This document shows, piece by piece, positions 24,780 through 26,302 of a DNA stretch of 64,000 nt. Under the pieces are notes generated by a model. The model saw nothing but the letters and a program-made list of their open reading frames with translations. It had not been told where the DNA came from and ran no database searches. Position numbers and translations under genes: made by a program. The DNA is from Escherichia coli (GTDB lineage: Bacteria > Pseudomonadota > Gammaproteobacteria > Enterobacterales > Enterobacteriaceae). Position 1 is the first letter of the stretch. Every line of letters starts with the position of its first letter. The stretch is from the NCBI RefSeq assembly GCF_044324875.1, contig NZ_CP172185.1; one strand, given 5' to 3'.

Positions 24780-25166
24780 TTAAATGCTGGCGAACGCCAT
24801 TGCCACTTCTGTAAAGCGCGATGTATACGTGTTTCTGGTCTCCGTCCTCAGATAGGGATTACCTTCGGGTAGCCGCCAGCGGAACAGCTTCTTGCCTTGC
24901 CCCACCAACCGGTACAGTATTTCGCCGCTGAGCTTGCCGTGATTGGTTTTACCAAATAAAACCCACGTTTTGCTCTGACCCGGTTTCGGTGATTTACACC
25001 ACCACCTCATCAGGGAAGCGATACCTGTACGGTATTTGCGGGCCAGCCAGTGAGCCAGCTTCCAGAACACGACACGGTCGATATAACTGAAGACTTTGGC
25101 CTTAAAATCAACGAACTGATAGAACATGGCCCAGCCTTTCAGTTTTCGGTTGAGTTGTTCAGCCAT
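24780..25166 (-). pseudogene. Group II intron maturase (X) domain in a different frame from the RT ORF
   Basis: 128-aa ORF; RT ORF ends at 25208 in another frame, so the intron protein is probably frameshifted. Confidence 0.6.
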
Positions 25167-25207
25167 ATCGACTTTGCTTTCACTGTAGTTGCCTGATAAC
25201 AGTGCTG

Positions 25208-26302
25208 TCAGCGATGCGGCGAAGTTTCTGGCTTTCTCCTGCGGGACGTTGAGACCACTCGCATCTCGCCATAACGACTGCGTTTGCGAATGATCCTGTG
25301 CCCCAGAAAGATAAAGCCGTCATTAACATGGGTGATTTTAGTCTTATCCATGTTCAGCCTGAGTTTCAGACTGCCTTCGAGCACACCCCGACACTCCTCC
25401 CTGATGGCTTCCGCCTGTGCTTTGGTGCCTTTGACGATGAGGACAAAATCATCGGCATAGCGGCAGTACGCCACCGCGGGTTTCCACTGCCAGTTTTCTC
25501 TGACCGCCGTACTTCGGCCCCGTTGGATACTGTTATTCCAGTACCACCGATCTTTTCTGGCTTTCCCGCTCAGGTAGCGCTCATGCAGGTATTGATCGAA
25601 CTCATTCAGCATGATGTTCGATAATAGCGGCGATATAACACCGCCCTGTGGCACACCTTCACTGGCCGCCCGAAAGAGACCGACATCGATATGTCCCGCC
25701 TTGATGGTTTTCCACAGCAGAGTCATGAAACGTGCGTCACTGATCCTGCGGCGTACAGCCTTCATCAGCAGTCGATGATGTACGGTGTCGAAGTAACTGG
25801 ACAGGTCGCCTTCAATCACCCAGCGTCCCCGGGTTTCACCACAGTCTGTGAGCTGTAATTTCACCGTGCGGATAGCGTGGTGGACACTGCGCTCAGGCCG
25901 GAAGCCATATGAGAGCGTATGAAAATCACTCTCCCATATCGGCTCCATCGCCATCAGCATGGCCCGCTGAACAATACGATCCCGCAACGTGGGGATACCC
26001 AGTGGTCGCAGTTTGCCGTTGCTTTTAGGGATGTAAACCCGTCTGGCGGGCAAGGGCTGGTAGTGGCCTGAGAGTAATTCATCCCTGAGGATTTGCAGCT
26101 CAACAGCCAGTCTGGCCTGTAGCATTATTTTGTTCACGCCATCAACGCCGGGGGTATGGGCCCCCTTTGATGAAAGCGTGATCCGCGCCGCTTCAGCCAG
26201 CCATTCTGGTTGTGTTATCAGACGCAGCAGCCGTTGAATCCGTAGGGACGGATCGGTGGCTGCCCATGTGGCAAGCTTGCGTTGCATTTCGCTGATTATC
26301 AA
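25208..26302 (-). CDS. Group II intron-encoded reverse transcriptase (RT domain), separated from the maturase domain by a frame change
   Basis: 364-aa ORF with RT motifs (RPLGIPTLRDRIVQ, GVPQGGVISPLLSN, YCRYADDFVLIV); the final residues look out-of-frame. Confidence 0.75.
   Translation of the reverse strand: MIISEMQRKLATWAATDPSLRIQRLLRLITQPEWLAEAARITLSSKGAHTPGVDGVNKIMLQARLAVELQILRDELLSGHYQPLPARRVYIPKSNGKLRPLGIPTLRDRIVQRAMLMAMEPIWESDFHTLSYGFRPERSVHHAIRTVKLQLTDCGETRGRWVIEGDLSSYFDTVHHRLLMKAVRRRISDARFMTLLWKTIKAGHIDVGLFRAASEGVPQGGVISPLLSNIMLNEFDQYLHERYLSGKARKDRWYWNNSIQRGRSTAVRENWQWKPAVAYCRYADDFVLIVKGTKAQAEAIREECRGVLEGSLKLRLNMDKTKITHVNDGFIFLGHRIIRKRSRYGEMRVVSTSRRRKPETSPHR

Follow-up and report, generated by a model that had tools for sequence, protein, structure and literature searches.

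The 64-kb stretch of Escherichia coli DNA analysed here, referred to below as the window, contains on its minus strand a group II intron at 24690..26958, which interrupts a transposase gene and carries in its domain IV the coding sequence for a reverse transcriptase (RT) and a maturase (X) domain, present here in different frames. The initial annotation dealt with the open reading frames (ORFs) only; the intron itself extends from 26958 to 24690, opening with GUGUG (26958..26954) and ending in ...CUAC at 24690, in accordance with the GUGYG/AY termini of group II introns. It measures 2269 nt here and 2270 nt when intact. With the copy of E. coli E24377A as the reference for E.c.I4 (NC_009801 4848623-4850893, named E.c.I4-2b in Table S3 of Leclercq and Cordaux, 2012, PMC3522654), we counted 8 differences in 2271 aligned columns (99.65% identity), the deletion described below among them. 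This is above the 95% nucleotide identity beyond which introns share a name under the database rule quoted in PMC3552965, and the intron is thus, on sequence comparison, a full-length E.c.I4. E.c.I4 (also S.f.I1) is known from Escherichia and Shigella, is held in the Zimmerly group II intron database and was analysed by Leclercq and Cordaux (2012, PMC3522654); it belongs to bacterial class A, whose proteins are without an En domain (Toro and Martinez-Abarca, PMC3552965). Pfam likewise recognizes only RVT_1 and GIIM, and no endonuclease (HNH) domain, in the intact 502-aa protein.

Domains V and VI of the ribozyme (24690..24776, minus strand) match the Rfam model RF00029 (Intron_gpII) with 64.9 bits (gathering threshold 40) and E = 2.2e-11, and the minimum free energy fold of domain VI has one unpaired, bulged A 7 nt from the 3' end. 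The Rfam D1-D4 group II models gave no match at E ≤ 1, and curated support is limited to domains V and VI. A candidate EBS1 (5'-CGUAAG-3', 26623..26628, minus strand) lies in a 9-nt hairpin loop of domain I and is complementary to CUUACG, the six bases with which the 5' exon ends. Chance alone would be expected to give about 0.5 such 6-mer complements in 2.3 kb; taking sequence and fold together, the EBS1-IBS1 pairing CGUAAG/CUUACG is plausible. No IBS2/EBS2 pairing was found in domain I when exact 6- to 7-mer complementarity was searched. Only with an intron end at ...CUAC (24690) do the joined exons stay in the transposase frame, giving TAC G|TC TGG and the residues Y V W.

Two ORFs lie within the intron on the minus strand. 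The larger, at 26302..25208, encodes 364 aa from a TTG, matches RVT_1 (E = 2.3e-35) and contains the YADD motif at 25459..25448, and the smaller, at 25166..24780, encodes 128 aa from an ATG and matches GIIM (E = 4.5e-10) from position 24 of the 80-position profile, of which positions 24-70 are kept. The ORF list and the Pfam searches thereby confirmed what had been read from the sequence initially, namely an RT ORF with a YADD motif and a maturase ORF at these positions and in different frames, an agreement well past what chance would give. The gap of about 40 bp proposed between them survives only in part. There are indeed 41 nt between the RT ORF stop (25208) and the ATG at 25166, but upstream of this ATG its frame continues without a stop past the lesion, and the two frames overlap by 39 nt, so that the apparent gap is a product of ORF calling and not a true one.

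Comparison with the intact 502-aa orthologue WP_122991331.1 shows how the two ORFs fit together. The intact protein scores 341.9 bits against TIGR04416 (cut-off 300), with RVT_1 at residues 86-332 and GIIM at residues 356-421, and its orthologues start at the ATG corresponding to 26287 rather than at the TTG at 26302 of the ORF call. From this ATG, the truncated ORF of the window (25208..26287, minus strand) encodes native residues 1-347, comprising the RT domains, followed by 12 aberrant residues and a stop; its product covers TIGR04416 only at profile positions 4-282 of 353. The remainder of the gene (24780..25246, minus strand) is out of frame and holds residues 348-502, that is, the X/maturase domain (GIIM at approximately 25223..25026) and the class-specific C-terminal region. 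The 128-aa ORF begins at M375 (25166), which is the first ATG of its frame. On alignment, both ORFs are therefore halves of one intron-encoded RT/maturase lying in different frames. The suspicion that the RT ORF ends in junk-like residues was borne out, since its last 12 residues (SRRRKPETSPHR) are out-of-frame translation. The break follows codon T347, in the linker between RVT_1 and GIIM, at 25247|25246 and thus 39 nt upstream of the RT ORF stop, and no uninterrupted ORF spans RT, X and C-terminal region in the window copy.

The alignment to intact intron-encoded proteins that the initial annotation had called for placed the indel exactly: the split by a frame change that it had described results from one missing base at 25247|25246, after codon 347 of 502. 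We located this single-base deletion (25246..25247, minus strand) in alignments to the copies of strains GF4, AR_0085, BEN5202 and E24377A. The coding strand reads CAACG|TCCCG in the window and CAACGATCCCG in all relatives aligned, the deletion allele in its coding-strand context being CAACGTCCCG; on the plus strand the window has GGGA|CGTT and the relatives have GGGATCGTT. The deletion falls at intron position 1712/1713, within the ORF of domain IV, is not within a homopolymer and removes a GATC site. In pairwise alignment with GF4 the missing base is the sole difference over 2401 nt, and the ribozyme part is unchanged relative to this intact copy. Megablast found 24600..27000 to be near-identical in 1,873 of 5,426 complete E. 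coli genomes, and nearly all full-length matches comprise 2402 bases against the 2401 bases of the query. GF4, AR_0085 and BEN5202 each carry one 1509-nt ltrA, in the order IS66 fragment, IS3-family fragment, intron, IS3-family fragment and type I restriction-modification gene hsdM. An intact 1509-nt ltrA beside hsdM is likewise present in strain 23CRST013, but with a complete IS copy ahead of the intron: at 746..5045 of NZ_AP045773.1 an uninterrupted 1310-bp IS is followed by a repeated 28 nt of the 5' exon and then by the intron. Either this locus has been rearranged in 23CRST013 or its assembly is at fault. We also considered a gene that is naturally made of two ORFs or that uses a programmed frameshift, and rejected this because the gene is in a single frame here in every other copy examined.

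The intron interrupts a host element of mixed origin. The 5' exon (26959..27754, minus strand) corresponds to the first 796 bp of a 1310-bp IS3-family IS and is 99.75% identical to four full copies of this IS in the window. It contains orfA (27699..27373, minus strand; HTH_Tnp_1 and HTH_21 matches), the ALIL frameshift pseudoknot (27418..27302, minus strand; RF01497, 111.7 bits) and the N-terminal part of orfB, whose last residues are ...WVADFTY. The 3' exon (24202..24689, minus strand) is the 3' part of IS911 orfB with the integrase core (rve, rve_3 and rve_2 matches), and is identical at 197 of 201 positions to the 3' flank of the E24377A copy, the 5' junction of which is identical to the annotated IS911A-1 end in MG1655. 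Uninterrupted IS629-type copies diverge from the 3' exon of the window 2 nt past the insertion site. Judged from these alignments, the 3' exon is not the natural continuation of the 5'-exon IS and the host is chimeric. Leclercq and Cordaux (PMC3522654, Table S2) list copy E.c.I4-3a of E. coli 55989 in a 'chimeric IS629/IS911' host, and 24202..27760 of the window aligns full length to that locus at 97.7% identity; by this published description the 5'-exon IS is IS629. The chimera predates the deletion, as GF4, BEN5202 and AR_0085 share it and have an intact ltrA, and it most likely arose by recombination between intron copies residing in two different IS elements.

On its 5' side the intron adjoins ...GATTTTACTTACG of the 1310-bp IS, and the 3' junction is TCTGGACGG of IS911. 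The E24377A, MG1655 and 55989 copies share this insertion position, which is the usual homing position, at the conserved D-x-T-Y codons of the IS3-family transposase gene. E.c.I4 inserts at particular positions within IS3-like transposases of IS629, IS911, ISEc16 and ISEc31 (PMC3522654). The predicted ligated exon junction would be ...GATTTTACTTACG|TCTGGACGGG..., and the spliced IS629-type 5' exon and IS911 3' exon would join in frame to give a hybrid transposase, the IS ends belonging to different elements.

The host element is a neighbour of a type I restriction-modification operon, and the genomic island of E. coli to which both belong bears other traces of IS activity. Two 100%-identical copies of the 1310-bp IS (17605..18914 and 19527..20837) stand in inverted orientation around a 617-bp piece of hsdS, the specificity gene of type I restriction-modification, and this piece is itself inverted relative to GF4, which has neither IS copy. 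The inverted pair at 17605..20837 means that hsdS is disrupted here, and the 1310-bp IS appears to have been active recently. The island part at 1956..48629 is 99.9% identical to GF4, and 55608..62521, beyond about 55.6 kb, reaches only 97-97.8% in its alignment with the efeUOB/putP portion of that locus in GF4; the island seems to be common to different chromosomal backgrounds.

Whether the missing base is missing from the cell or only from the assembly bears on everything that follows, and we consider it probable that the deletion is a recent private mutation of this lineage. The allele was absent from all 4,445 homologous places in the 5,426 complete E. coli genomes probed with a 100-nt sequence, where the best match was 99.0% over 101 nt and the extra base was always present, and it had no exact match in JGI metagenome contigs. 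Scans with a gapped pattern accepting both alleles returned only the wild type, in 12 of 12 viral contigs (IMG/VR) and in both GTDB species-representative genomes (Hafnia and Rahnella) that carry the wild-type 31-mer. The truncated protein, from either start, was absent by exact look-up from a collection of 15 billion proteins. Such uniqueness suits a very recent mutation and an error alike, and the position of the lost base within a GATC makes an error more likely, methylated motifs such as Dam sites being a known source of nanopore consensus errors. The genome might in reality have an intact 502-codon ltrA, the base having been lost during consensus calling or polishing of a repeated element, possibly through Dam methylation of the GATC. 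We regard this as unlikely, though far from negligible: thousands of copies that are near-identical in all else do not share the allele, a one-base indel without a second occurrence in a repeated element also resembles an assembly or polishing error, and the base falls in a motif that makes up about 1.3% of the aligned sequence (138 sites of 4 nt in 43.5 kb). Moreover, related genomes carry several copies of the intron, a kind of repeat in which polishing is at its least reliable, and four 100%-identical 1.3-kb IS copies in 64 kb imply a long-read or hybrid assembly.

The sequence around the lesion does not, however, have the profile of an error-prone assembly. Over the 43.5 kb aligned to GF4 the window differs by 20 substitutions, the deletion in ltrA, which is the sole single-base indel, and a further deletion of 19 bp; the 63 homopolymers of at least 6 nt are all equal in length, 137 of 138 GATC sites are intact, and no Dam or Dcm motif of the window has been lost by substitution. 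A systematic basecalling error at Dam sites was rejected on the same count of GATC sites. The 19-bp deletion looks genuine, showing that real indels happen in this island. It is located at 47334, beside a short CCGTAC repeat and within a gene annotated in GF4 as a DUF3987 domain protein, and is probably a slippage deletion that frameshifts this gene. At two Dcm sites (CCWGG, 32579 and 39314) the window agrees with BEN5202 and GF4 differs, and here it may be the GF4 assembly, and not the window, that contains consensus errors linked to methylation. The caveat of an assembly error, made in the initial annotation, is weakened by this comparison but still stands, and a real private mutation in ltrA remains our preferred reading. 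The combination of a unique allele with a GATC position makes the site a useful spot-check of assembly accuracy.

If the deletion is real, two ways in which the copy might still yield a working protein have to be weighed. Occasional -1 ribosomal slippage in the 39-nt overlap could return ribosomes to the X-domain frame and leave the copy partly autonomous. A candidate site exists, A_AAG at 25235..25232, directly after the rare codons AGG AGA, and in E. coli the motif A_AAG is known to allow -1 slippage at low efficiency. The zero frame reads ...CGC AGG AGA AAG CCA..., and a -1 shift at AAG would continue with GCC AGA AAC, giving ARN as in the intact protein, so that the predicted full-length product would be altered only at residues 348-351 (IPQE to SRRR). 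A near-native RT/maturase would then be made, and the deletion would act as a strong down-regulator of intron mobility, not as a knockout. We nevertheless think this very improbable, as the site is not a heptameric slippery sequence, the arrangement is present in no other copy and hence not conserved, the four changed residues fall in the RT-X linker, and slippage would probably give no more than a per cent of full-length product. Still more improbable, to the point of being almost dismissible, is that RT and X polypeptides are made separately and reassemble into a working protein. The second ORF does have an ATG (25166), GIIM profile positions 24-70 and the C-terminal region, yet residues 348-374, with the first approximately 19 residues of the X domain, are missing from both pieces, and no convincing ribosome-binding site was seen upstream of 25166. 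The 128-aa ORF also occurs on 288 contigs with diverse upstream lesions or truncations; because it arises with any such lesion or truncation, it represents a by-product of these rather than a conserved gene.

We thus return to a simple, predicted loss of function caused by the deletion. Once the frame is broken, translation runs through 12 aberrant residues to a stop, leaving the X (maturase/thumb) domain and the C-terminal region unmade. The X/thumb domain is needed for maturase activity and productive reverse transcription in group II intron proteins. In proteins that have no endonuclease domain the C-terminal extension aids splicing and mobility, as shown for RmInt1 of class D (cited in PMC3552965). 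As the longest product is without the whole X domain and the C-terminal region, the 347-residue RT fragment should be inactive and the copy non-autonomous, which makes the corresponding proposal in the initial annotation a sound one. Judging from domain content, the maturase and mobility functions of the window copy should be abolished. It would no longer produce the protein on which the folding of its RNA for splicing, reverse splicing and cDNA synthesis depend, and would represent a non-autonomous, decaying retroelement whose splicing or movement would require protein from an intact E.c.I4 elsewhere in the cell.

Rescue by the protein of another copy, on which the initial annotation took the intron to depend, is conceivable because the lesion lies in the ORF of domain IV and the ribozyme is untouched. 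The 64-kb window contains no other intron-encoded protein gene. A 159-nt fragment at 13006..13164 (minus strand), among IS fragments next to an IS30 copy, matches the opening 159 nt of this intron exactly; lacking a protein gene, it cannot supply maturase. The closest relatives have 2-4 intron-matching places per chromosome, and by analogy a donor copy in the source genome may be possible. The window copy probably represents a dead-end remnant, and the host loses nothing through its inactivation, since the interrupted IS is already a defunct chimera.

The window copy has several counterparts among known E.c.I4 copies. It shares with E.c.I4 in general the boundaries, the insertion position in IS3-family elements and an RT-X protein without endonuclease, and with E.c.I4-3a of E. 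coli 55989 the chimeric IS629/IS911 host; it differs in the one base missing after codon 347, an allele present in no other searchable copy. Some full-length E.c.I4 copies have disrupted ORFs, for example in E. coli SMS-3-5 and Shigella flexneri 2457T, and in the view of Leclercq and Cordaux ORF-disrupted or truncated copies cannot proliferate, copies in islands being inactivated by mutation and then slowly degrading (PMC3522654). The SMS-3-5 and 2457T copies and the ykfC copy of K-12 (CP4-6) resemble that of the window in having an inactivated protein gene in islands or other mobile elements. The listed length of the 2457T copy, 2270 against 2271, suggests a 1-nt deletion, and the K-12 copy is a truncated fragment that keeps the 5' part of the intron beside IS911A-1. 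Using the 128-aa ORF, we retrieved ten places out of the 288 contigs, all of which are the K-12-type truncated fragment or copies with other lesions. Five other disrupted copies found in this way, full-length or internally deleted, each have a different lesion: some show indels in homopolymers, and others have lost 4 nt, gained 1 nt at intron position 1767 or lost 552 nt internally. This diversity indicates that ORF decay in E.c.I4 is common and arises independently.

Two further observations concern the distribution of E.c.I4 sequences. In K-12 MG1655 the sRNA EyeA (b4690) lies within domain I of the truncated E.c.I4, at approximately intron nt 390-464, between IS911A-1 and ykfC, so that this 'sRNA' is part of the intron remnant. 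The exact wild-type 31-mer of the E.c.I4 protein gene occurs in Hafnia paralvei ATCC 29927 and Rahnella ecdela FRB 231, and this match suggests that E.c.I4 or a very close relative has spread beyond Escherichia and Shigella.

The intron, the type of chimeric host and the type of ORF defect are all already known, and the finding is in this sense an ordinary one. Its main use is in annotation, where both ORFs belong together as one ltrA pseudogene inside a full-length E.c.I4 and not as two genes; beyond that it has little significance. It does provide a clear and datable example of the first step in retroelement decay, one base away from an intact orthologous copy, and fits the published view that island-borne E.c.I4 copies are inactivated by mutation (PMC3522654). 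Outside E.c.I4, the closest parallels are systems that work in trans. Intron-encoded proteins have a preference for the RNA from which they are translated. ORF-less or defective group II introns can be mobilized in trans, as in the engineered Ll.LtrB delta-ORF/targetron and the natural ORF-less introns of Thermosynechococcus. The window copy differs from these in that it shows simple decay and no selection for trans-dependence, and in that the window holds no donor gene; what it has in common with them is an intact ribozyme without a functional protein of its own and a possible reliance on another copy.
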